Part shown: positions 2 through 30,000 of the stretch, piece by piece
Layout of the letters: each line of letters opens with the position of its first letter
Position numbering within the stretch: the stretch's first letter is position 1
Source: Halogeometricum borinquense DSM 11551
GTDB lineage: Archaea > Halobacteriota > Halobacteria > Halobacteriales > Haloferacaceae
Assembly (NCBI RefSeq): GCF_000172995.2
Contig: NC_014729.1
Location: forward strand, 1,890,001-1,922,000
DNA length: 32,000 nucleotides
Direction: 5' to 3'
Notes under the pieces: generated by a model
What the model saw: the letters and a program-made list of their open reading frames with translations, nothing else
The model's database searches: none
What the model was told of the DNA's origin: nothing
Position numbers and translations under genes: made by a program

Positions 2-895
2 GACGCCGTCGTGGACGTTCTCGTCGTGACGAACGACGAGAACAACTACCTCACGACCGCGCTCTCGGTCATCGATAGCGTCAAACTCACGGTGAAGAAC
101 CCGCCGACGCCGACGGACGGCAACTACGACGTGGTCGTCTACTCGAACGTGGAGGGCGAACGACTCCTCGCGGGCAACCTGCAGGCGGGACGTGACGCAA
201 TCAAGAACGGCGGCGGCGTCGTGATTCAGGCGCAGTCACCCATGCCGAAGCGGTACGACGATCTGCTTTTGCTCTCCCCCAACGGAACGGGGACGAACCC
301 GACGCTCACCTCGCCCGCAAAGACGGAACTGATGCGGAACATCAACTTCCCACCGCCGGAGCTGTACCTCCAAGGCGAACTCCGCGAGGGGAAGGCGCTC
401 TTGAAAACGGCAGATGGTACGCCGATGATCGCAACCGCCCAGCGCGGTTCCGGCCAGATACTCTACTACGGCTACATCGAGTCGGACTCGTCGTTCAAGT
501 ACAACTACCAGTATCCGGTGTTCTGGAAGCGCGCTGTCTACGACCTCGCCGGACGGCCGCCGCTCTCGGCGTTGAACGAGCAGACCGGCACGCGCCTGTC
601 GTTCGAGAACGAGACGAGCATTACGACGCCCGAGGGTGCGGTCACCGCGTCGTCTGTCCGTCTCGACGATTCCGGGTTCTACGAAGTTGACGGCACGCGA
701 TACAGCGCGTCGCTGTTGAGTGAATCCGAGTCCGCCGTCGTCGCGTCCGACATCGGCGCCACAGATAACGAGAGCGTGGCGTCGCGCGAGGAAGAGAAAA
801 CCGCTCCGGACCCGCTGACCGAATGGGTCGCACTCGCCGCTATCGGTGGCGTCGTCCTCGAAGTCGCCTACCTCCGCCGACGAGGTGATCTCTAA
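2..895 (+). CDS. C-terminal part of a membrane-anchored protein in the MoxR/VWA operon (5' end lies outside the window)
   Basis: The frame is open from base 2 with no upstream stop. The product is acidic and ends in a hydrophobic anchor (EWVALAAIGGVVLEVAYLRRRG). Its stop overlaps the next start (TAATG at 893-897). Confidence 0.75.
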   Translation, partial: DAVVDVLVVTNDENNYLTTALSVIDSVKLTVKNPPTPTDGNYDVVVYSNVEGERLLAGNLQAGRDAIKNGGGVVIQAQSPMPKRYDDLLLLSPNGTGTNPTLTSPAKTELMRNINFPPPELYLQGELREGKALLKTADGTPMIATAQRGSGQILYYGYIESDSSFKYNYQYPVFWKRAVYDLAGRPPLSALNEQTGTRLSFENETSITTPEGAVTASSVRLDDSGFYEVDGTRYSASLLSESESAVVASDIGATDNESVASREEEKTAPDPLTEWVALAAIGGVVLEVAYLRRRGDL

Positions 896-3252
896 TGGTC
901 GGCTTCGAGCTCCCAACGGGCATGACTGTCGGCGTAGAGCGGCCGCTGTTCCTCCTCGCTTTGCCCATCGGGGTCATCCTCCTGTGGGCGTTCGTGTGGT
1001 ACAGAGCGGACGGAACGGCGTCAAATCGGAGTCGGCAGTGGTTCTTCGTCGTGCGCATCCTCACCGTCGTCCTCCTCGTCGTTTCCGCCGCCGGACCGTA
1101 CACGGCCCAGTCAACCGAGACCTTGGGGGAACCGAAGGTGACACTCCTCGTAGATCGCTCTGATAGTACGACTGTCGCGCCCCAACGCGCCGACAAAGTT
1201 GCGTCGGCTATCGAGAAAGCGGGTGTTCCGGTGGCGACGACGACGATTGCCAGCGGCGGCTCCTCGCCTATCGGCGACGGTGTGGCCGCGAACCTCCGCG
1301 AGAACGGGAGCGTCCTCCTCCTTTCGGATGGCAGGGTGACAGAGGGACGGTCGCTTTCCGAGGTAACGGAACTCGCTCGGTCGCTGAACACCACCGTCTC
1401 CACCGTTTCGCCCGAACCCAACACGAAAGAACGGTATGTGTCGGTTAACGGTCCCTCGAAGACGAGCGTCGGCGTCGAAAGCACGTTCCTCGTCAGCGTC
1501 GGCGGCGTCGAAATAAACACGCCGGCCAAAGTGACCGTCGCGGTAGACGGCGAGCAAGTGTTGGAGACGACGATTCAGAACGCCACCGACGCCCGCGAGT
1601 TCACGCACACGTTCTCGGAGACGGGGACGCATCGAATCACCGCGGAGATGGAATCGACCGACAAGTTCGAACAAAACGACGTGTTCCGCAAGACGGTCCG
1701 CGCCGTAGACCGGCCGAAGATTCTGTACGTCTCCGAGCGGGGCTACCCGTTCGAGAGTTACCTCCGCAACGTGTACAACGTCGAAAAGCGGTCGTCAGTT
1801 CCCGAAGACCTCTCGCCGTACTACGCCGTCGTCGTGCAGGATATGCCCGCGAGCCGTATCGGCAACGTGGACGCTCTCCAAGAGTACGTCATCGATGGCA
1901 ACGGACTGCTTGTCGTCGGCGGACCGAACTCGTTCGAGAACGGTAACTACGAGAGTTCCTCGCTGGCGTCGATGCTCCCGGTGACCACCGGCGACGGGAG
2001 AGGCCAATCAACGAACATCGTCCTCTCAATCGACGTTTCGGGGAGTTCCAAAGGCGGTATGCGCGTACAGAAAGCCGTCTCGCTCTCCGCGCTGAAACAA
2101 CTCGGCGACGAAAACGAAGTCGGCATCGTCGGCTTCAATCATCGCACCTACAGCGTCGCAGAGCGACAGCCGCTTGGCCCCAACCGCGAGGCGCTGGCTG
2201 ACCGAATTCGTCGTCTACAGGCGGGCGGCGCAACGGACATCGCAGGCGGTCTCCGCGGTGCGGGGAAAATGCTCGGCGACGATCCGGGCACGGTCATCCT
2301 CATCAGCGACGGACACGACCGGGTCGAAGAGTCCATCAGTTACGCCAAACAGCTCCGCTCGGAAGGCAAGCGTATCATCGCAATCGGTGCGGGGAAGAAC
2401 CCCAACGAGAAGAACCTCCGCACTATCGCCCGCGCGTCCGGCGGGAGTTACTTCCGCGCGACCGAGACGAACCGCCTCAATATCCTGTTCGGCGGGGCGC
2501 AGTCGTACGAGGGCGAAGGCCTGACCATGGTTGATCCGAACACGTTCATCACGTCCGGTGTGAGGCTGACGGCGAATCCGGGTTCGACCAATGACGTGTC
2601 CATCCGACGTGGCGCGGACTTCCTCGTGGCGAGCGAGGACGGCACGCCCGCTGTCGCCACGTGGCGCTACGGTCTCGGTCGCGTCGCCACCATCACGACG
2701 TACGGCGCGGACGGGAGCCTCGACGGCCTCCTCGGCAAGCCCGATTCGCTGCTCTTGACGAAATCGACGAATTACGTCATCGGCGATCCGGAACGGAAAG
2801 CGACCGGCATCACCGGCATCTCAGATACTCGCGTCGGGTCTTCGACGACAGTGACGTACCGCGGTGACGAGCGCCCGTTTGTCGAGGGCGTAAGCTTCCG
2901 GCAAGTCGGTGACGGGGCGTACCGGGCATCAGTAACGCCCGACGAGGCTGGCTTCCACGAGGTGATGGACGCCGCGTACGCCGCAAACTACCGAGCCGAG
3001 TACGGCGCGTTCGGTCCGGATCCCGCTCTGGACGACTTAGTGGATGGAACCGGCGGTAAGGAGTTCACCGCGGATCAGGGCGAGGAAATAGCCGAGTTCA
3101 CCCGCGAACAGTCCCGACGGGTTCGGTCCGTCAAAACTGACTGGACGTGGCTAGCGCTAGTACTCGCGCTCGTATCATTCAGTCTCGATGTCATCTATCG
3201 GCGGGTTCAAGTCCGTCGGAGCAGTACCGCTGGTGAAGGAGGCTTGACATGA
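895..3252 (+). CDS. von Willebrand factor type A (VWA) domain protein with BatA-like N-terminal TM region and C-terminal TM anchor
   Basis: MIDAS-type motif DVSGSS, followed by GGATDIAGGL and VILISDGHD. N-terminal hydrophobic helices (PLFLLALPIGVILLWAFVWY) and a C-terminal TM (WTWLALVLALVSFSLDVIY). Coupled to neighbours on both sides. Confidence 0.9.
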   Translation: MVGFELPTGMTVGVERPLFLLALPIGVILLWAFVWYRADGTASNRSRQWFFVVRILTVVLLVVSAAGPYTAQSTETLGEPKVTLLVDRSDSTTVAPQRADKVASAIEKAGVPVATTTIASGGSSPIGDGVAANLRENGSVLLLSDGRVTEGRSLSEVTELARSLNTTVSTVSPEPNTKERYVSVNGPSKTSVGVESTFLVSVGGVEINTPAKVTVAVDGEQVLETTIQNATDAREFTHTFSETGTHRITAEMESTDKFEQNDVFRKTVRAVDRPKILYVSERGYPFESYLRNVYNVEKRSSVPEDLSPYYAVVVQDMPASRIGNVDALQEYVIDGNGLLVVGGPNSFENGNYESSSLASMLPVTTGDGRGQSTNIVLSIDVSGSSKGGMRVQKAVSLSALKQLGDENEVGIVGFNHRTYSVAERQPLGPNREALADRIRRLQAGGATDIAGGLRGAGKMLGDDPGTVILISDGHDRVEESISYAKQLRSEGKRIIAIGAGKNPNEKNLRTIARASGGSYFRATETNRLNILFGGAQSYEGEGLTMVDPNTFITSGVRLTANPGSTNDVSIRRGADFLVASEDGTPAVATWRYGLGRVATITTYGADGSLDGLLGKPDSLLLTKSTNYVIGDPERKATGITGISDTRVGSSTTVTYRGDERPFVEGVSFRQVGDGAYRASVTPDEAGFHEVMDAAYAANYRAEYGAFGPDPALDDLVDGTGGKEFTADQGEEIAEFTREQSRRVRSVKTDWTWLALVLALVSFSLDVIYRRVQVRRSSTAGEGGLT

Positions 3253-22714: not shown

Positions 22715-22909
22715 TTACAGGCGCTGAAGGTTCTTCGCGCGCGGGCCCTTGTCGGCCTGCTCGATATCAAACTCCACTTCCTGACCTTCCTCGAGGTCCG
22801 GGCCGCCGACGTCTTCCATGTGGAAGAAAACGTCTTCGTCAGAGTCTTCGCTTTCGATAAATCCGTAACCGCCGGTGTCGTTAAAGAACGCAACCGTACC
22901 TTTCGCCAT
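22715..22909 (-). CDS. csp: cold-shock domain protein
   Basis: ATG at 22909. MAKGTVAFFNDTGGYGFI (RNP1-like) and DVFFH (RNP2-like). 64 aa. Confidence 0.93.
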   Translation of the reverse strand: MAKGTVAFFNDTGGYGFIESEDSDEDVFFHMEDVGGPDLEEGQEVEFDIEQADKGPRAKNLQRL

Positions 22910-22972
22910 TGCGGGTGGATTGAGGGTGACCACCCTGATAAGGTTTCCGCCGTCGGTCCGTCAGCACGACAG

Positions 22973-23380
22973 TCAGTGATCCGTTGTCGTCGCGGCTGCC
23001 GTCAACGAAAGGACGGAGACGCGACGTACCGCGTCGAAGTCTCGCAGTCGGTAGACGAGTCGGCGGACACGTTCGGCGGGACCGTCGCAGAACGCCACCT
23101 CGAAACACCAGTCGCCGTGGTGAGTGTGACTCGTCGCCTCGATGACGCCCTCGAAGTCGTGCTGGACCGTGTGTAGTTCCTGAATTACGGCCTCGTGCTC
23201 GTAGTCGAACGCGACGACGGCCGCGATGTTGCCCTCGGCCTCCTCCAGTCGCGTGTGCGATTCAACGTACTCTAGCATCGCTTCCCGAATCGCGCGGGAC
23301 CGGGAGTCGAGGCCTTCGGCCTGCCACACCGCGTCGAACTCCGCGAGAACGTCGTCCGGCACGTTCAGACTCGTTCGCAT
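22973..23380 (-). CDS. nikR: NikR-type nickel-responsive RHH regulator
   Basis: ATG at 23380. N-terminal RHH (RTSLNVPDDVLAEFD). C-terminal ACT-like domain with H...HTHHGDWCFEV, matching the NikR His/Cys nickel site pattern. Confidence 0.85.
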   Translation of the reverse strand: MRTSLNVPDDVLAEFDAVWQAEGLDSRSRAIREAMLEYVESHTRLEEAEGNIAAVVAFDYEHEAVIQELHTVQHDFEGVIEATSHTHHGDWCFEVAFCDGPAERVRRLVYRLRDFDAVRRVSVLSLTAAATTTDH

Positions 23381-23536
23381 GGTGGCCTCTCCGCGAAGGA
23401 CGCCTAAGAAACGTCGCATTCACCAACCGCCGCTTCTCTGTCCCATCAACCCATAATTCGATAGCGACGTAGATTATTACGGAACCCCCATATCGGTCTT
23501 AACAGGCGTTATACGCAGTGGTGAGGACCTATTCGT

Positions 23537-24712
23537 ATGGTCAGCGATCTGTGGGGGTTGATCGGCGGCGCGGTCGCACTCGGCTTTGTTCACGGCGTCG
23601 AACCGGGTCACGGGTGGCCTATCGCCGCCACGTACGCGATGGAAAAGGGGAACAAGTGGCTGTACGGGGCCGCCGCGGGGACCATCCTCGGCATCGGTCA
23701 TCTCGTGAGTAGTATCGCCATGGTCGTCGTCTTCTTCGCCGCGAAGTCCTACTTCAATCTGACGCAACTGCCGTGGATTTCGCAGATTGCGGGCGTTCTG
23801 CTGATCCTTCTTGGACTGTACGAACTTCGCGGTGGTGGTCATCACCACGGTGGCGACGATAGCCACGACCACGGCGAGCATGATGACCACGACACCCACA
23901 CCGACCATCACGATGGCGGTCGCCACGATGGCCACGGCGAACACGACGGCCACAGCCACCATGGCGAACACGGCGGCCACAGCCACCACGGCGAACACGA
24001 CGGCCACAGCCACCACGGCGAACACGACGGCCACAGCCACCACGGCGAACACGACACCACCCACGTTCACGTCGGTAAACACGGACGCGACGAACACGGC
24101 GTGTTCTACGCTCACAGCGACGACGATAACCACGGTGAACACGGGGTTCACCATGTCCACAGCGACCACGACAGTCACCACAGTCACGACGACCACGGAC
24201 ATCACAACCTCGTTCTCGGTCACCACGATTCCGAAGATCACGACGACGAGCGTCGTCACAGCGACCAACACGGACACGGCGACCACAGCCACCATGACAG
24301 CCACGACCACCACAACGACCAACACGGACACGACCACCACGAAGACGGCGTCCTCGCACGTCTCACGTCTGCACTGCCGTTCGTCGGCGGGCACTCACAC
24401 TCGCACCGTCTCGGGTCGGATCCCGCGGAGACGAGTCTATGGAGTATCGCGTGGTTCGCGTTCCTCCTCGGGTTCGCCCACGAGGAGGAGTTCGAGATTA
24501 TCCTCCTCTGTACCGGATCGAACTACTGTCTCGAACTCATGACCATCTACGCGCTCACTGTCATCGTCGGCATCGTCTCGCTGACGCTCCTGCTCGTCGC
24601 GGGTTACTACCGCTATGAAGACCGCGTCGAGTCGGTCGCTGAACACTTCCCGACCATCTCCGCGGCTATCCTCATCTCGATGGGACTTGGATTCCTGTTC
24701 GGCGTGTTCTGA
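23537..24712 (+). CDS. RcnA/NicO-like nickel-cobalt transporter with a roughly 190-aa His/Asp-rich loop
   Basis: N-terminal HGVEPGHGW resembles the H-x-x-x-PGHGK signature of the RcnA family. TM helices lie at both ends. The central loop is almost pure H/D/G/E/S with HDGHSHHGE repeats. Divergent from nikR. Confidence 0.8.
   Translation: MVSDLWGLIGGAVALGFVHGVEPGHGWPIAATYAMEKGNKWLYGAAAGTILGIGHLVSSIAMVVVFFAAKSYFNLTQLPWISQIAGVLLILLGLYELRGGGHHHGGDDSHDHGEHDDHDTHTDHHDGGRHDGHGEHDGHSHHGEHGGHSHHGEHDGHSHHGEHDGHSHHGEHDTTHVHVGKHGRDEHGVFYAHSDDDNHGEHGVHHVHSDHDSHHSHDDHGHHNLVLGHHDSEDHDDERRHSDQHGHGDHSHHDSHDHHNDQHGHDHHEDGVLARLTSALPFVGGHSHSHRLGSDPAETSLWSIAWFAFLLGFAHEEEFEIILLCTGSNYCLELMTIYALTVIVGIVSLTLLLVAGYYRYEDRVESVAEHFPTISAAILISMGLGFLFGVF
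23948..24055 (+). repeat. 4 x 27-bp in-frame tandem repeat (GGCCACAGCCACCACGGCGAACACGAC, encoding GHSHHGEHD)
   Basis: Read directly. Copies 2-4 are identical. Copy 1 differs at 2 positions. A partial copy precedes at 23930-23947. Confidence 0.9.
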
Positions 24713-24753
24713 TCCCGTCCCCGACGGCTCGGCGTTTCTGACTCCGTTTGGAT

Positions 24754-24795
24754 TTACTCCCCGGAGTCGCGCCCGAGCGTGTGGAACTTATCGTT
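24754..24795 (-). pseudogene. orphan 3'-terminal fragment (NDKFHTLGRDSGE-stop) homologous to the C-terminus of the AhpD/CMD-family gene at 30001-30600
   Basis: Minus-strand translation of 24795-24754 gives NDKFHTLGR.... This aligns in frame with NDEFHSLGR near the end of the intact gene 5.2 kb away. An in-frame TAG lies immediately upstream, so it is not part of a longer ORF. Confidence 0.55.
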
Positions 24796-24883
24796 CTAAT
24801 TTAAAATAGATACACAGCGTCAACATCCCCGAGAATGTGCTTCATTTACCTTGATTAATGTAGGTGAACAACCAACTCCAATC

Positions 24884-25792
24884 ATGGATATTGAAAACCA
24901 CTTGCATATCGCGGCATGGATTGCATCAGAAGCAGAAGTAGAGACTATTGATAGTTACTCGGAGAACCTCTCCCGATACAGAGATTTGGGCTATACACAC
25001 ATACCAATACCTTCAGAAAATAAATTTTACAACTTAGAAAATGACACCATGATGAAATTAGATGAGGAACAAATAATTCATGAAGAAACACACTTAATGG
25101 ACGTATTGAGGTTGATTCAAAATAAGCCCTTTCTACTGATTGACCGTAGGATTGGCTCCTATTACATTGTGACTGACGCTGGTGAATTTGTATTACCTCA
25201 TAGTATTGGAACACCTCAGGACGAGTACCTCAAAAAAGAGAAGGTCGAGGAATATTATGAAGACCGAATTGACGAACCATTTAGTGTATTTACTGAACAA
25301 GAACTTAGAGAAGAATATCCAGAAATTGCGAAAAGCGAAGTTCCTGTCGGAAACCCATATCAGATTATCACATTGTCTGATATAAATGACAGGATGATGA
25401 AAGAGATGCTGTATAGTGTTTTTGCTGAGTTGACCTCCCAATTAGCAACGAGAATTGAAAACGAGTATCCAGATTCGAGAGAGCTAATAACTAAAATTGG
25501 AGATAGTAACGTTGGACGCTGGAAAAAAGAACGCATGAGCGGAAGAGATGTTCATATTGCAGAATATACGACCCTTAGAGATATTATGGAAATACTGAGG
25601 AGTTCAAATCCTCACTTTGTGGAAGCATGCGGTTTTGAAGCAAAAGATGATATAGATAGTCTCAGAAAAATCATAGATATTCGAAACCATGTCATGCATC
25701 CGAATAGGTCACTTGTCTACAATCGAAGTGACATCACGAATGTGTTAGATGCTATTGACGAAGCCCAGAGAATTATATCAGGTATGAAATAG
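24884..25792 (+). CDS. AT-rich cargo protein with C-terminal Swt1-like HEPN domain (putative RNase; candidate defence/abortive-infection effector)
   Basis: ATG at 24884 with TATA-like GATTAATG about 25 nt upstream. G+C was 25% and 35% in the two 60-nt lines I counted, against about 60% in the flanks. The C-terminal LRKIIDIRNHVMHPN contains R-N-x3-H (25682-25699), preceded by helices resembling Swt1-type HEPN. The N-terminal 100 aa have a CBS-like feel (LMDVLRLIQNKPFLLIDRRIGSYYIVTDAGEF). Confidence 0.6.
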   Translation: MDIENHLHIAAWIASEAEVETIDSYSENLSRYRDLGYTHIPIPSENKFYNLENDTMMKLDEEQIIHEETHLMDVLRLIQNKPFLLIDRRIGSYYIVTDAGEFVLPHSIGTPQDEYLKKEKVEEYYEDRIDEPFSVFTEQELREEYPEIAKSEVPVGNPYQIITLSDINDRMMKEMLYSVFAELTSQLATRIENEYPDSRELITKIGDSNVGRWKKERMSGRDVHIAEYTTLRDIMEILRSSNPHFVEACGFEAKDDIDSLRKIIDIRNHVMHPNRSLVYNRSDITNVLDAIDEAQRIISGMK

Positions 25793-26029
25793 ATTCGACT
25801 TTCCACACAGAACCCTAACTACGGATAGTATGAGGCGGGAGAGGAGCGCCTCCTACCTTCGTTAACGGGACGGAGATGATGCTGGCATTACGGGACTGTC
25901 CTTTCGTCCATCGCTTAGTCATGCGGGACGGGGTTGCTCCCCTATCCCCGCACACTCCCATGTCACAAATACCAGATAGCTACGGCTATGGAGTGTTACT
26001 CTGAAACATGGGGATGAAGAAAGAGGTTG

Positions 26030-26650
26030 TTAGAAGCTACCCGCTTGGATGGGACCGCTCCGATTGAGGGGATGCGGTTCGTACTCTTCCTCAATCAGAC
26101 GGTGCCTCGCCAGCATACGGCGACCGTCGACGGCGTCGTTCTCCGCTATATCCAGCACCTCCTCAATCTCGCTGACGCCAAGACCACACCTGATATACAG
26201 ATATTCGAGAATCCGTCCGTTGTCGTGAGGGGCACCCTTGAATTGGTCGCGGCGAACGACGATGCCGTCAGCATCATCGGGATGGGGGAGGGTGATACCG
26301 TCAACCGTTTTTTCGACGGTAGGGGTACCACCGTGGGTACCCCGTTGCTCCGCGTCATGGATGCCAAGCACCCTTGCCGCGGTCTCTTCGCTAACGCCAA
26401 GTTCCGCCGCCACGTCTATCGCACCGTTAGTCAAGGGGTGTGCGGCTATCTCACGGATAATGTCTCCCGATTCAGCGTCGTACAGTTCGTCTTTCTCGGG
26501 GTACTCATCATAGTCCACAGAGGCAAGGGGTAGACCAACCTCGTACCCTACTTCTTCGTCTGGCTCAAACCATTCGTTAACTGCATCGGGACGGTCTTCG
26601 GCGGCATCTCCGTCACGGTCCCACCCTTCGGCAAAGGGGTTGAACGTCAT
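26030..26650 (-). CDS. element-encoded acidic protein with two HTH-like segments
   Basis: 206 aa. LTNGAIDVAAELGVSEETAARVL and YIRCGLGVSEIEEVLD look like helix-turn-helix units. ATGA overlap with the upstream ORF. Confidence 0.65.
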   Translation of the reverse strand: MTFNPFAEGWDRDGDAAEDRPDAVNEWFEPDEEVGYEVGLPLASVDYDEYPEKDELYDAESGDIIREIAAHPLTNGAIDVAAELGVSEETAARVLGIHDAEQRGTHGGTPTVEKTVDGITLPHPDDADGIVVRRDQFKGAPHDNGRILEYLYIRCGLGVSEIEEVLDIAENDAVDGRRMLARHRLIEEEYEPHPLNRSGPIQAGSF

Positions 26651-26868
26651 TCCGAACCCCCCTTGTACCCCCGCGGGAAGTGACGGCGACCCTCGTTCTC
26701 GTCCTCTTCCTCACGTTCCAGTTCTTCAATCGCATTCTTGACTTCTTGGGCGTTGAACCCGCCTTCCTCAAGAAGCCCGTTGACTATCTCCTTGGCGTTC
26801 AACTCCGCAACGTCGACGGTGAGGAGACGGGAGTCCTCTCGTTCATCCATCTGGAAATCCTCGGTCAT
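26647..26868 (-). CDS. element-encoded small acidic protein
   Basis: 73 aa. Start and stop overlap the neighbours (ATGA at both ends). Acidic, halophile-like composition. Confidence 0.6.
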   Translation of the reverse strand: MTEDFQMDEREDSRLLTVDVAELNAKEIVNGLLEEGGFNAQEVKNAIEELEREEEDENEGRRHFPRGYKGGSE

Positions 26869-27161
26869 TCCGAATCACTCCCATATGCGGAAGTAGGAAC
26901 GGCGAACCAGAGTTTCGGCGTATAGGTAGGGCTGTCAGCAACCGCCGTACCGAGAACGACCGCGTTGTCATTTAGCGATACGTCCTCTCCATCACGGACG
27001 TTTTTCCTTTGGATGACATACTCCGTCTGATTCGCGGCGTCAACGTCGATAGCGGTGAGATTGACCCTTGAACGTGCCGCCTCAAGGTGCTTAGATTCGA
27101 GTTGACCGAATCGAATCGTATCACCTTGGCTCAGGAGTCGATTGACACCAACAGCGTTCAT
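26865..27161 (-). CDS. element-encoded hypothetical protein
   Basis: 98 aa. Coupled to the ORFs on either side. Confidence 0.55.
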   Translation of the reverse strand: MNAVGVNRLLSQGDTIRFGQLESKHLEAARSRVNLTAIDVDAANQTEYVIQRKNVRDGEDVSLNDNAVVLGTAVADSPTYTPKLWFAVPTSAYGSDSE

Positions 27162-27340
27162 CAGAACGTCACCCCCGTATCGTCGTTAGCCACAATCGGA
27201 ACGTCGATGCCGTACGCCTCGTTGACCGCGTACTGAATTATTTGACCGTATGCCAATTCTCCGCCAAACCGCTCGTCGTTCACTTCATCGAGAAGGTCTT
27301 TCTCATAGTCGTGAACTTTGATACTCTTGCTTCGTGCCAT
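27161..27340 (-). CDS. element-encoded small protein, first gene of the four-ORF operon
   Basis: ATG at 27340 (MARSKSIKVHDYEKDLLDEV...), with an alternative at 27388. Its stop overlaps the next start by 1 nt. Confidence 0.5.
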   Translation of the reverse strand: MARSKSIKVHDYEKDLLDEVNDERFGGELAYGQIIQYAVNEAYGIDVPIVANDDTGVTF

Positions 27341-27708
27341 TGCTTCATCTAATACGTTGTGCAGGTTCCACCATTGAGCTACTATCACGGCACTGCCCCT
27401 CTAACGACGCTGATAACAGCGATTGACCGCGTTTCTGTCGTTCTTACATCAGCGTCTCTCATTATCCCCTCTGAGGCGATACGAGGATTGGTAAGATACG
27501 CTGATTATCCCACCGTCAATGGGTGCCAGCGGTTATGCGAACCCGACAAATATCCGAAAGCATCCGAATATACGTTGATATGGTCATGTCTCGTACGAGG
27601 AAAGGAACATTTATCGGCATCTGTGGTGCCGAAATTTGATATTAGGGGGTTTTGAGAGAATCACGGGGTGTTCTCTCGCGTGCGCGATATTACTATAGTG
27701 TATTAGAA

Positions 27709-27794
27709 TACGTTCGTAATTACACTACGTTCGTATTGCCACTAACGAACTGATAGGTACTCTACGAACGTATCCACCCCTCCTTTACGAACGT
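27709..27794. repeat. 10-bp iterons: TACGTTCGTA x2 direct (27709, 27726), then the exact reverse complement TACGAACGTA (27763) and TACGAACGT (27786)
   Basis: Read directly. A partial AACGAAC lies at 27744. Related GTTCGTTC x2 lie at 27863 and 27882. Confidence 0.85.
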
Positions 27795-27813
27795 TGCCGG
27801 TCGGTTTCCTCCC

Positions 27814-28201
27814 CTCAGACACCGCCTCAGACTCGGGAAGGGACCGACCAACCGCCATCGATGTTCGTTCCATCTCCAGACGTTCGTTCAATCGCTTGCC
27901 TCTCGTAACGGCGACCGTCAACGGCGTCGGGGACCGCAACCGCATCCTCGGGGACCGCAACCGCACGCTGACGCCAGCCGCCTCAATTTGCCTCAGATTC
28001 GATTTGCTGATTCTGGACAATGATTCCCTCTTGGTCGAACCAGAAACCGATTCTGACGATGATTAGGGCGCATAGAATCGAACCAATCATTCCTCTGAGT
28101 AATCAATTCCGCTCAATCGCCTCAGATTTGTTTCTCAGCGATTTCTCTTCTCAGACGATGATTTTCGCCAAGAATCTGTGCCGATTCTGACGCCTCTCAG
28201 A
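27814..28201. repeat. dispersed CTCAGA / GCCTCAGA motif cluster
   Basis: CTCAGA on the plus strand starts at 27814, 27826, 27992, 28121, 28150 and 28196. One inverted copy is at 28094. Variants CCTCAA/GCTCAA/CTCAGC are at 27981, 28206, 28111 and 28134. A 12-bp repeat CCGATTCTGACG is at 28047 and 28181. Confidence 0.85.
27927..27965. repeat. 2 x 18-bp direct repeat TCGGGGACCGCAACCGCA (period 21)
   Basis: Read directly: 27927-27944 and 27948-27965. Confidence 0.9.
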
Positions 28202-28529
28202 GACGCCTCAACCGAATCGTATGTGTATCGGTTATCTCATATGCGGCTGAGTTATCGAATCCGCCGTATGCACTTCCCTTTATCCGAATAACACAAAGTG
28301 GGTAGAATTGACTATCAATATATCGTGAATAAATAACCACAAATCGACAGACGGGGCATACCCTCCCTCCGCATTAATTAGAATACTACTTAAAGGACCC
28401 ATTTCAGCGGGGTAGTGGTGGAAAAACGCCCGCGACGTATCGATGTTCTATCCAGTATATACGAATCCACCACCGTATAGCGATTTTATTTGAAATTTTT
28501 TGCCAGAGAATCCACCAAAATATCGGCGG

Positions 28530-29465
28530 CTACGATTCGAGCGAGGGGCCGAACTGCCGCGCCTTGGTTTTCACATCGTCGTCAGCAAGGTCAAGATACA
28601 TTTGTGTCGTTTCGATGTCGGCATGCCCCATGAGTTTCTGCAACGTCCGTACGTCCATACCGTTCTTCAATGCGGCTACGGCGAACGAATGACGGAGCGT
28701 ATGTCCCGTGATTTTCCGCTTGGGTCGACCGCCTTTATCGTGGTACATCACTTCTTGAATCCCCGCCTCCTCTGCCGCCTCTCGGACGATTCGGCTAACC
28801 GAGTTTGGCTTGATGTGTTCCGCCTTCTGCGTCGGGAATAGGTGCGGCGAATCATCCGCTGTCAGCACCCCGTTGCGTTCGGCGTCAATCCAGATATTCA
28901 GCGGGGTAGATAGCGAGGGTTGGTAGTAGACCGTACGGTTGCTGTGTGTCTTATCAGCATGAATCCGAATCGACCGTTCCTCGCGGTTAACGTCATGGAG
29001 TTTCACCTTACACAACTCCCCTCTTCGCATCCCCGTTTGGAATAGCATCTTGATAATCAGTTCGTTGCGGAGTTTCGGCGGGGAATGGACGTTATCGACT
29101 AACTGTTGCACCTCATCAGGAGTGAGGTAGTGTACGTCATCCCGCAAGGACTGAGATTTCTTACTACCCTTCTTGACCGCTGTCCACGACCCTATTGAGA
29201 CATCCTCAACAGGGTTGTAGTCGTACATTTCGTCATAGAACTTAGCTATCCCTGCCCTCGCTATCTTCAGCGACCCTTTAGCGTAATCCTCGTCTGCTAA
29301 ATCAAGGAGATGACTCTCAACGTCGTCTTGGTTTGCGTCACCGAATTCAACTCCTCTCTCGTCAAGCCAGTCTCGGTATCGACGGATAGCAGAGGCATAT
29401 CGGTTTGCTGTCCCCTCAGTCTGTTTTACCGAAACATGTTGCTGGAAGGTATCTATTTCAGACAT
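28530..29465 (-). CDS. tyrosine recombinase / phage-type integrase
   Basis: Catalytic pattern GMRRGEL (Arg I), HTLRHSFA (His-x-x-Arg) and LMGHADIETTQMYL (His ... Tyr). N-terminal SAM-like core-binding region. Confidence 0.92.
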   Translation of the reverse strand: MSEIDTFQQHVSVKQTEGTANRYASAIRRYRDWLDERGVEFGDANQDDVESHLLDLADEDYAKGSLKIARAGIAKFYDEMYDYNPVEDVSIGSWTAVKKGSKKSQSLRDDVHYLTPDEVQQLVDNVHSPPKLRNELIIKMLFQTGMRRGELCKVKLHDVNREERSIRIHADKTHSNRTVYYQPSLSTPLNIWIDAERNGVLTADDSPHLFPTQKAEHIKPNSVSRIVREAAEEAGIQEVMYHDKGGRPKRKITGHTLRHSFAVAALKNGMDVRTLQKLMGHADIETTQMYLDLADDDVKTKARQFGPSLES

Positions 29466-29979
29466 CTTTGTAGTAAGCGGGGTGTTGCAACTCGTATTCC
29501 GTTCCGTCGTTTTCTCGGCGTATGTACGTCCGTTTCACCGCGTTAGTGCTGTTGAAAAGTTGTTCCAGTCGGATTCGGTATTTTGCTAATCCCCTCTCGC
29601 CCATCGCCTCATTGTGTTCCATCATTTCCTCAACCGTCTGTGCATTGTCACCTCCTTCGGGTAGTTTGTTCCACAATGAGGCAGTAGTGTCATCAACCTC
29701 TACCCCCGCGGTATGCATGGCTTCAAGCGCGTCTCCCAACGCCCCTTCTATCGTGCTAAGCCGTGACAGTATCTTGTCTGTTCTTTCGTCAAGGGTGTCT
29801 AACCGTCCACTATCGGCGTTACCCCCGCCTTGGGTTGTGGTTACGTCGCTAATCTCCCGTTCGACCGACGTACGAATCAAGTCGGTAAGGGTGTCGTACT
29901 CTCCGTTTTCTTCGACGTACGTTTGCCAGCGATTCTTCTGGTCCTCGCTGACTCGGAGGTGTATTTGCGGCCTTGCCAT
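29458..29979 (-). CDS. RHH (CopG/Arc-like) N-terminal domain protein, overlapping the integrase start by 8 nt; possible excision or regulatory factor
   Basis: MARPQIHLRVSEDQKNRWQTYVEENGEYDTLTDLIRTSVEREI fits a beta-alpha-alpha RHH. 173 aa and acidic. Confidence 0.65.
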   Translation of the reverse strand: MARPQIHLRVSEDQKNRWQTYVEENGEYDTLTDLIRTSVEREISDVTTTQGGGNADSGRLDTLDERTDKILSRLSTIEGALGDALEAMHTAGVEVDDTTASLWNKLPEGGDNAQTVEEMMEHNEAMGERGLAKYRIRLEQLFNSTNAVKRTYIRRENDGTEYELQHPAYYKDV

Positions 29980-30000
29980 ACACCACCGTTCAATCTCCTA

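Follow-up and report, generated by a model that had tools for sequence, protein, structure and literature searches.

A very distant archaeal relative of the one-protein CBS-HEPN antiphage system DS-11, a candidate defence gene at the edge of an integrated element of Halogeometricum borinquense

Introduction

Ribonucleases (RNases) of the HEPN type that are gated by a ligand are well established, and we describe here a gene of the archaeon Halogeometricum borinquense DSM 11551 that resembles several of them. It lies at positions 24,884 to 25,792 of a 32,000-nucleotide stretch of contig NC_014729.1 (assembly GCF_000172995.2, positions 1,890,001 to 1,922,000 of the forward strand), which we refer to as the window and whose numbering is used throughout. 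The gene encodes a 302-residue protein with a CBS-like N-terminal half and a HEPN-like C-terminal half, and is referred to below as the CBS-HEPN gene.

In 2013 Anantharaman et al. (PMC3710099) catalogued fusions of CBS domains with HEPN domains of the Abi2/Swt1 clade; they predicted that a nucleotide-sensing CBS domain controls an active HEPN RNase and proposed a role in the regulation of RNA stability. A one-protein CBS+HEPN system, DS-11 (WP_000257686.1, 365 amino acids), has since been found to protect E. coli from phage (DeWeirdt et al., DefensePredictor, Science 2026, PMC13092281). DS-11 mutants with the substitution Y157A in the CBS region, or R330A or H335A in the HEPN domain, lose defence, Y157 being a predicted adenine contact, and the authors propose that the CBS region binds an unidentified adenine derivative and thereby regulates the HEPN nuclease (PMC13092281). 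Their HHpred analysis assigns DS-11 residues 252-359 to PF18731 (HEPN_Swt1) with a probability of 0.98 (PMC13092281, supplement). A further HEPN effector, ApeA, is activated by deoxydinucleotides that bind at a site away from the active site, and cleaves tRNA anticodon loops (bioRxiv 10.64898/2026.01.26.701840).

Archaeal innate immunity is far less charted than its bacterial counterpart, and very few single-gene systems of the abortive-infection type have been tested in haloarchaea. The gene described here came to attention through a prediction made from the letters of the window without database searches (the original prediction), which proposed that it is an AT-rich orphan encoding a Swt1-type HEPN RNase with a possible N-terminal sensor, acting in defence.

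Results

Two-domain architecture and relationship to DS-11

Profile comparisons identify the CBS-HEPN protein as a very distant relative of DS-11 and not as its orthologue, and we regard both this relationship and the CBS-HEPN architecture as very probably correct. The features of the gene are as follows.

24884..25792, forward strand: CBS-HEPN gene, 302 codons plus stop, corresponding to H. borinquense hypothetical protein GL213_09940
24884..25387, forward strand: divergent CBS/Bateman-type module (residues 1-168), presumed ligand sensor
25175..25354, forward strand: extra segment (residues ~98-157), strand-helix-strand-helix-helix, without a DS-11 counterpart in the alignment of the 80-sequence and DS-11 family profiles
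25364..25381, forward strand: h-h-T-x-x-D motif of CBS beta3/alpha2, I161-I-T163-L-S-D166, identified by conservation and the DS-11 alignment
25391..25789, forward strand: all-alpha HEPN-type domain (residues 170-302), predicted RNase effector
25682..25699, forward strand: Rx4H catalytic-type HEPN motif, R267-N268-H269-V270-M271-H272, identified by conservation and the DS-11 alignment

The longest form of the open reading frame (ORF) in the ORF list is initiated at a TTG codon (24851..25792, forward strand) and encodes 313 amino acids, and the ATG at 24884 gives 302. We take the latter as the real start because the homologues begin at the same methionine (MDIE..., with M1 conserved in at least 90%). 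The original prediction had the 302-codon length right and picked the arginine and histidine of the Rx4H motif, but its R278 and H283 were counted from the 313-residue TTG form; in the 302-residue numbering they are R267 and H272.

Relatives were sought with HMMER in an exhaustive search covering 1.84 billion representative proteins, which was required because word-indexed searches reached only 5-8 of them. It returned 268 with an E of 1e-3 or less, 52 of which reach E<=1e-30; most have 260-340 amino acids. Three alignments of the family were used: a broad one of 80 sequences extending down to ~20% identity, to which all counts out of 80 refer; a stricter one of 42 full-length relatives; and a narrow one of the 18 closest relatives. 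The DS-11 family was represented by 30 sequences.

The C-terminal string DSLRKIIDIRNHVMHPNRSL of the CBS-HEPN protein contains the Rx4H motif, in which R267 is present in 80/80 sequences, H272 in 78/80, M271 in 77/80 and N268 in 73/80, N268 being the polar residue that follows the arginine in HEPN Rx4-6H motifs. In the window protein it is part of an extended R-N-x-V-M-H-x-N-R-[ST]-L motif. Conservation across 80 homologues places the Rx4H string far beyond a chance match, and the motif arginine and histidine, whose lack of conservation would have counted against a HEPN nuclease, are thus nearly invariant. The h-h-T-x-x-D motif at beta3/alpha2 of a CBS domain is of the ribose-binding type, and here T163 and D166 are each conserved in 74/80 relatives and the nearby N168 in 78/80.

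Profile-profile comparison with DS-11 gave the following matches.

80-sequence alignment against the single DS-11 sequence: 92%, E 6.7e-7, 182 columns
80-sequence alignment against the DS-11 family (30 sequences): 96.9%, E 1.4e-10, 196 columns, residues 17-290 on DS-11 137-352
42-sequence alignment against the DS-11 family: 94%, E 1.5e-7, 184 columns
18-sequence alignment against the DS-11 family: 34.7%, E 4e-4, 214 columns

The key residues coincide in these alignments. R267 and H272 align with DS-11 R330 and H335 in all of them, and I-I-T163-x-x-D166 aligns with DS-11 I233-I-T235-T-T-D238 in the same register in all three profile alignments, T235 and D238 being invariant across the DS-11 family. 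Y37 pairs with DS-11 Y157 in the alignments based on 80 sequences, and 67/80 sequences have an aromatic residue at this position. In the alignment of 42 sequences with the DS-11 family, the second CBS-like unit of the window protein falls on the first unit of DS-11, and F83 takes the Y157 position, CBS1 and CBS2 being internal repeats. The NCBIfam model NF053863 (DS11_antiphage, 'CBS domain-containing anti-phage protein') matches the window protein at residues 188-272 with an E of 0.012, and matches 22/80 relatives individually, with a best E of 2.5e-7. The possibility that DS-11-like sequences within the broad profile created the link was rejected: the highest score that the DS-11 family hidden Markov model (HMM) gives to a relative is 22.7 bits, and the stricter 42-sequence profile still reaches 94%.

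The C-terminal half is probably a HEPN-type domain bearing an Rx4H signature, with predicted RNase activity. Modelled alone with AlphaFold2 (AF2) it consists of helices only, with a predicted local distance difference test score (pLDDT) of 96, which agrees, together with the near-invariant Rx4H and its placement on R330 and H335, with the HEPN-type C-terminus of the original prediction. The best direct Pfam match to a HEPN family is HEPN_Apea at residues 199-292 (E 0.014; 16.3 bits, below the 24.4-bit cut-off); HEPN_Apea is matched by 7/80 relatives (best E 1.9e-4) and HEPN_RiboL-PSP by 4/80. By hmmscan, PF18731 (HEPN_Swt1) gave no match at E<=10 for the protein and none at E<=0.01 for the 80 relatives. 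This is uninformative, not negative, because true DS-11 proteins (30/30) match CBS only and no HEPN model in the same type of scan. The designation 'Swt1-type' thus holds indirectly, through the UniRef name of the protein ('Swt1-like HEPN') and the PF18731 assignment of the DS-11 domain, but our own hmmscan yielded the sub-threshold HEPN_Apea match instead. With the isolated domain as query, the top Foldseek match in the PDB is the HEPN protein 2hsb (AF_0298), with an E of 0.57, a probability of 0.44 and a template modelling (TM) score of 0.34-0.38, which is not significant; Csm6 appears weakly, at E 2.4-5 overall and 3.8-5 for the isolated domain.

The N-terminal half is probably a divergent CBS (Bateman-type) module, for which several lines of evidence, each weak, converge. 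Pfam CBS matches the single protein at residues 64-103 (E 0.009; 16.8 bits, under the 24-bit cut-off) and 7/80 relatives individually (best E 8.9e-7), and the family profile matches CorC-type CBS domains in the PDB with an E of 4.6e-4. In a Foldseek search with the whole chain the CBS-pair proteins DarB, YkuL and human CBS lead (E 0.08-0.6, probability <=0.93). The AF2 model of the whole protein, built with the family alignment, has a mean pLDDT of 94.8 and a predicted TM score of 0.88, and shows a beta/alpha N-terminal half followed by an all-helical half from about residue 170; its lowest-confidence stretch is residues 101-120 (pLDDT 69-73). The CBS-like N-terminal sensor suggested beforehand therefore finds agreement among Pfam, the CorC profile match and the structural neighbours. 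The structure prediction that had been recommended as a check gave a mixed outcome, in that the models are confident and CBS-pair proteins lead, but the HEPN match to 2hsb is not significant. As far as the predicted models go, structure comparison supports the CBS module and is compatible with a HEPN domain.

Distribution and genomic context of the homologues

A scan with the 18-sequence alignment of one genome per species (185,579 species) found five loci, all in Halobacteriales, and three further copies lie on haloarchaeal megaplasmids. All homologues that could be located in genomes are haloarchaeal. The scan did not return H. borinquense, though the protein fits the pattern RNxVMH[APT]NR[ST]; masking or the genome chosen to represent the species may account for this. 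The neighbours of the homologues are as follows.

Saliphagus (L001/L011): Mrr_cat and PD-(D/E)XK genes nearby
Halorubrum CSM-61 (L003): HEPN half only; abutting insertion sequence (IS) transposase ORF; T5orf172 and UPF0175 nearby
Haloterrigena sp. KLK7 megaplasmid (L012): integrase adjacent; PifA homologue 2 kb away
Haloarcula pelagica plasmid (L013): DUF4238, Mrr-like nuclease-domain protein (PADLOC PDC-S02/type IV restriction endonuclease models), PIN
Haloferax gibbonsii plasmid pHG3 (L014): DUF5677, DEAD-box helicase, annotated restriction endonuclease, integrase
Metagenomic contig P0157: 1717-residue DEAD/Helicase_C/MZB protein, DUF4268
Metagenomic contig L015: unannotated AT-rich neighbours
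Halorussus ruber (L002): ordinary host genes only
Metagenome-assembled genome (MAG) QS_8_69_26 (L004): ordinary host genes only
Halovenus rubra (L005): ordinary host genes only

Defence genes, integrases or IS elements are thus neighbours in seven of 11 contexts, the window included, and the context is not conserved. The homologues often have mobile or defence-island-like surroundings, and a conserved housekeeping context was not seen. An all-against-all comparison of the 375 ORFs within 3 kb on either side at ten loci revealed no shared partner ORF other than a cold-shock gene in two loci, and no MNT/nucleotidyltransferase or antitoxin-like neighbour was present in these ten loci, so that a conserved partner or antitoxin was rejected. 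The original prediction had likewise seen no MNT or antitoxin partner at the window locus. The lack of a shared partner and the variety of contexts point to a stand-alone, horizontally mobile gene and not to a housekeeping gene.

Carriage by viruses was rejected as well, since no relatives were found in IMG/VR, INPHARED phage genomes or PHROGs. A single-sequence search with the window protein against PHROGs and PDB sequences gave no match, and Foldseek with the whole chain found nothing significant in the PDB and noise only in the viral library BFVD. The two integrase-linked copies do not share one type of element; their integrases are unrelated, with 24% identity over a fragment.

Several of these loci have features of their own. 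The Halorubrum homologue (L003, 8811-10432) is cut to 133 residues and abutted by a 381-residue IS-type transposase ORF, and this copy looks to have been inactivated by insertion. The PifA homologue of the Haloterrigena megaplasmid (L012, 5967-8081) is a 704-residue KAP-family NTPase that matches the PADLOC PifA model with an E of 4e-126, a strong archaeal homologue of the abortive-infection protein PifA of the F plasmid. On contig L015, a 653-residue acidic ORF (459-2420, reverse strand; 43% G+C) has no Pfam match and lies in divergent orientation beside the closest homologue of the CBS-HEPN gene (61% identity); together the two form an AT-rich island with GC-rich flanks, and the ORF may be a further cargo or defence gene. 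The cold-shock-domain gene, 89% identical between the window (22715-22933, reverse strand) and Halorussus ruber (L002, 10927-11121, reverse strand), lies within ~2 kb of the CBS-HEPN gene at both loci, probably a coincidence involving a conserved multi-copy gene.

Composition and expression signals

The CBS-HEPN gene has a G+C content of 37.8% (35% at third codon positions), compared with 61.8% for host DNA at 1-24000, and the lowest 500-nucleotide G+C content of the whole window (36.2%, at 25001-25500) falls within it. The gene is therefore AT-rich and compositionally the most foreign object in the window, as had been claimed. Copies that are 41-62% identical in protein, those of Saliphagus, Halorussus (L002), Halorubrum (L003), Haloterrigena (L012) and contig L015, share with H. 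borinquense a G+C content of 37-40% within genomes of ~60-65% G+C (52% for the Haloterrigena plasmid). More distant copies have 48-51% G+C, and the 32%-identical copy in MAG QS_8_69_26 has 70%. No low-GC donor contig was found; on the contig of the closest relative, too, an AT-rich island is set between GC-rich flanks. The protein is acidic, in keeping with a halophile that uses a salt-in strategy: its isoelectric point is 4.76, and the median of the close family is 4.7. The ORF is intact, and a 100% identical protein recurs in a number of H. borinquense assemblies and read sets.

A promoter-like element lies just upstream.

24855..24862, forward strand: TATA-box-like element TTAATGTA, AT-rich, ~22-29 nucleotides upstream of the ATG

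The equivalent position carries TTTTATAT/TTTTGTAT in the Saliphagus and Haloterrigena copies. Read according to archaeal promoter geometry, the location of the TATA-like box suggests that the gene is transcribed from a promoter of its own into a leaderless mRNA. Scans for bacterial sigma-70 promoters and terminators are uninformative for an archaeal host.

The integrated element

The CBS-HEPN gene forms the left edge of a low-GC element, the principal features of which are given below.

24713..29990 (approximate), no strand: low-GC integrated element of ~5.3 kb, delimited by its G+C profile and by host genes on both sides
26030..27388, reverse strand: operon of four small acidic ORFs (75, 98, 73 and 206 residues), from ORFs and gene calls
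28530..29465, reverse strand: tyrosine recombinase (integrase), Pfam Phage_integrase E 4.3e-37, PHROG integrase E 1.5e-44

The element also holds a 173-residue ORF. The host genes to its left encode NikR and a His-rich membrane protein, and those to its right a CMD-family protein and Usp. The four small ORFs of the operon have no Pfam or PHROG match. The remainder of the element (25793-29979) has a G+C content of 52.2%, 14 percentage points above that of the CBS-HEPN gene, a gap that fits a separately acquired cargo. The presence of the integrase and this gap in composition support the proposal that the gene lies at the edge of an integrated element and is a secondary acquisition.

A 4,491-bp plasmid of Halomicrobium urmianum (NZ_CP084094.1) shows a similar run of small ORFs, and encodes a protein (L016 2801-3445) with 39% identity over ~95 residues to the 206-residue product (26030-26650, reverse strand). 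These two resemblances suggest that the 5.3-kb element represents a small plasmid in integrated form. The DNA of the element has no blastn match in plasmid and phage collections, no convincing attachment sites or flanking repeats and no tRNA were recognised, and neither structured RNAs of Rfam families nor phage-like proteins were found in it. Approximately 1.1 kb of the element (27389-28529) has no convincing ORF, and contains a perfect 18-nucleotide direct repeat (27927-27944 and 27948-27965) and a 17-nucleotide tandem repeat (27702-27735). The repeats of this stretch are candidate iterons, or a candidate replication origin or recombination site.

Outside the element, next to nikR (22973-23419, reverse strand), is a gene for a 391-residue membrane protein (23537-24712, forward strand) with a ~230-residue His/Asp-rich loop, whose DNA has 9-nucleotide-periodic repeats. 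It has no Pfam match, and is probably concerned with nickel or cobalt handling under the control of the adjacent NikR.

Discussion

Proposed function and alternatives

The reading that we favour, with a probability of roughly 0.6 for the full mechanism, is that the CBS-HEPN protein would be a self-contained, ligand-gated toxic RNase providing innate antiviral immunity of the abortive-infection type, carried as cargo of mobile DNA. The CBS/Bateman-type module would bind a small molecule resembling an adenine nucleotide and would probably mediate dimerisation, and the binding or release of this ligand on virus infection would turn on the HEPN domain. The two R-x4-H motifs (R267 and H272) of a HEPN dimer would then form a composite, metal-independent RNase site, and cleavage of RNA (tRNA, rRNA or mRNA) would arrest the infected cell and block virus production. 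A ligand-gated HEPN defence protein has precedent in DS-11, in ApeA with its deoxydinucleotides, and in the CBS-HEPN prediction of 2013.

Several observations weigh against this reading. The function of this protein and its archaeal relatives is predicted from sequence and models. The link to DS-11 is seen only at the profile-profile level (pairwise BLASTP gives an E of 0.34), the narrow 18-sequence profile reaches only 34.7% (E 4e-4) against the DS-11 family, and the score of the window protein with NF053863 is 14.8 bits, below the cut-off of 260. The equivalence of Y37 and Y157 is not secure, because the CBS register differs between alignments. Direct Pfam matches all fall under their gathering thresholds, and Foldseek finds no significant HEPN match with either the whole chain or the isolated domain. 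A scan of the protein with PADLOC 2023, a release that predates DS-11, gave no match, and three contexts (Halorussus, MAG QS_8_69_26 and Halovenus) show host-type neighbours only.

Two alternatives accept the RNase but give it another purpose. It might serve the mobile element, as a toxin of the addiction or post-segregational-killing type or as a weapon against competing plasmids or proviruses that stabilises the carrier. Such a role would suit copies found on or beside integrase elements, IS elements and megaplasmids, a carrier that in H. borinquense resembles a small plasmid, and a domain that is a common toxin module (PMC3710099). We nonetheless consider it unlikely: the ten loci have no conserved antitoxin-like partner, whether an MNT or one of another kind, the carriers are unrelated to judge by their integrases, the Halorussus copy stands alone among host genes, and the nearest characterised relative, DS-11, is a phage defence protein that acts without a partner. 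The other alternative, to which we assign the same low likelihood, is a physiological, stress-responsive RNase in which the CBS module reads energy charge or a second messenger (AMP/ATP, S-adenosylmethionine or c-di-AMP) and adjusts the turnover of RNA, immunity playing no part. CBS modules are classic sensors of adenosyl ligands, the c-di-AMP receptor DarB is among the best structural neighbours, some copies lie amid ordinary host genes, and regulation of RNA stability has been proposed for CBS-HEPN fusions (PMC3710099). However, a housekeeping regulator does not fit a distribution as patchy and rare as five loci in 185,579 species, a strongly foreign composition, a context that is not conserved and a copy truncated beside an IS transposase.

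Two further alternatives question the RNase itself, and are harder to reconcile with the conservation of the motif. That the HEPN-like domain is not a nuclease, acting in ligand or RNA binding or as a scaffold, or that the gene is a decaying, functionless remnant, would agree with the inferred inactivity of some HEPN domains, including that of eukaryotic Swt1 (PMC3710099), and with structural searches that give no significant confirmation of the fold; we consider it highly improbable given that the catalytic-type arginine, histidine and asparagine are retained in 80/80, 78/80 and 73/80 sequences, that the ORF is intact and identical across assemblies and read sets, and that the protein has the acidity of a native halophile protein and is modelled very confidently. 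A chance R-N-x-x-x-H in an orphan protein unrelated to HEPN or CBS might have been entertained from single-sequence searches, none of which gives a database match at a curated threshold. It is effectively refuted by the conservation among homologues and the profile-profile results: the search yielded 268 representative homologues (E<=1e-3), the motif arginine is invariant among the 80 aligned, the CBS evidence is independent, and both domains align collinearly with DS-11.

The favoured reading, an antiviral RNase gated by its CBS module, allows a bolder extension, which taken as a whole we regard as distinctly unlikely. The haloarchaeal clade would then be a functionally distinct, archaea-specific immune sensor, more than 'DS-11 in archaea', and its AT-richness would be under selection. 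The remodelled Bateman module, with its ~60-residue addition and without the DS-11 N-terminal domain, might sense another signal of haloarchaeal or viral origin, such as c-di-AMP or a virus-induced nucleotide, and the persistently AT-rich coding sequence might hold a toxic gene silent, or limit its translation, until it is required.

Significance

The gene is a credible defence candidate, but not an unprecedented one. Our literature search found no characterised haloarchaeal example of a CBS-HEPN protein. The novelty claimed for it was overstated because CBS+HEPN fusions were catalogued in 2013 (PMC3710099) and DS-11 has been validated (PMC13092281). The combination has been known bioinformatically since 2013 and experimentally since 2025-26, and what is new is the archaeal variant. 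No new principle is revealed, since ligand-gated HEPN RNases are well established, but the DS-11-like architecture now extends from bacteria to archaea, and contrasting two such distant branches could help to pinpoint the ligand of the CBS module. The candidate is small (302 residues) and has defined key residues, R267 and H272 for the nuclease and T163/D166 and Y37 or F83 for the sensor. A stable AT-rich composition within GC-rich genomes may also serve as a flag for other mobile defence cargo in haloarchaea.

Comparison with known systems

Among described HEPN proteins, eukaryotic Swt1 gives its name to the family, PF18731, to which the HEPN domain of DS-11 is assigned; however, its own HEPN domain is inferred to be catalytically inactive (PMC3710099) and is fused to a PIN domain, and the protein has its role in nuclear mRNA surveillance rather than in defence. 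The HEPN-MNT pairs of type II/VII toxin-antitoxin systems share with the window protein a small HEPN toxin, the Rx4H motif and residence on mobile DNA, but they need an adjacent MNT nucleotidyltransferase antitoxin, which is lacking at the ten CBS-HEPN loci. Csm6/Csx1, the CARF-HEPN proteins of type III CRISPR systems, offer a parallel in logic, with a sensor of an adenine-derived ligand that allosterically activates a dimeric HEPN RNase. Their sensor is a CARF domain and their ligand a cyclic oligoadenylate made by Cas10, whereas neither CRISPR association nor a cyclase is evident at the window gene.

ApeA is closer in being a single-gene HEPN effector, and HEPN_Apea provides the best direct, if sub-threshold, Pfam HEPN match of the window protein; it differs in having another N-terminal domain, without CBS, and in building large ring oligomers. 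The CBS-HEPN and CBS-HD-HEPN fusions of 2013 (such as alr3009; PMC3710099) have the same pair of domains and the same predicted logic, but are bacterial, some with an additional HD domain, and are likened here by description only.

DS-11 is the closest of the described systems, at a great evolutionary distance. Identity is ~15%, and the window protein lacks the N-terminal ~125 residues of DS-11, having only ~16 residues ahead of the aligned region, which starts at DS-11 136-137. Either ~60 of its residues (98-157) are additional, or its CBS arrangement is shifted. It also has the extended R-N-x-V-M-H-x-N-R-[ST]-L motif, and it is an acidic protein of a halophilic archaeon, known at present through its sequence and models, unlike its experimentally studied counterpart. 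The score of 14.8 bits against 260, the missing N-terminus, the added residues and the archaeal host together place it outside the DS-11 equivalog family. Yet both are single polypeptides in which a CBS region is followed by a HEPN domain of the Swt1/Abi2 type with no partner gene, and they match collinearly over ~180-196 columns. Both carry I-I-T-x-x-D-L at the junction of the CBS and HEPN regions, and both place the Rx4H motif ~30 residues from the C-terminus.

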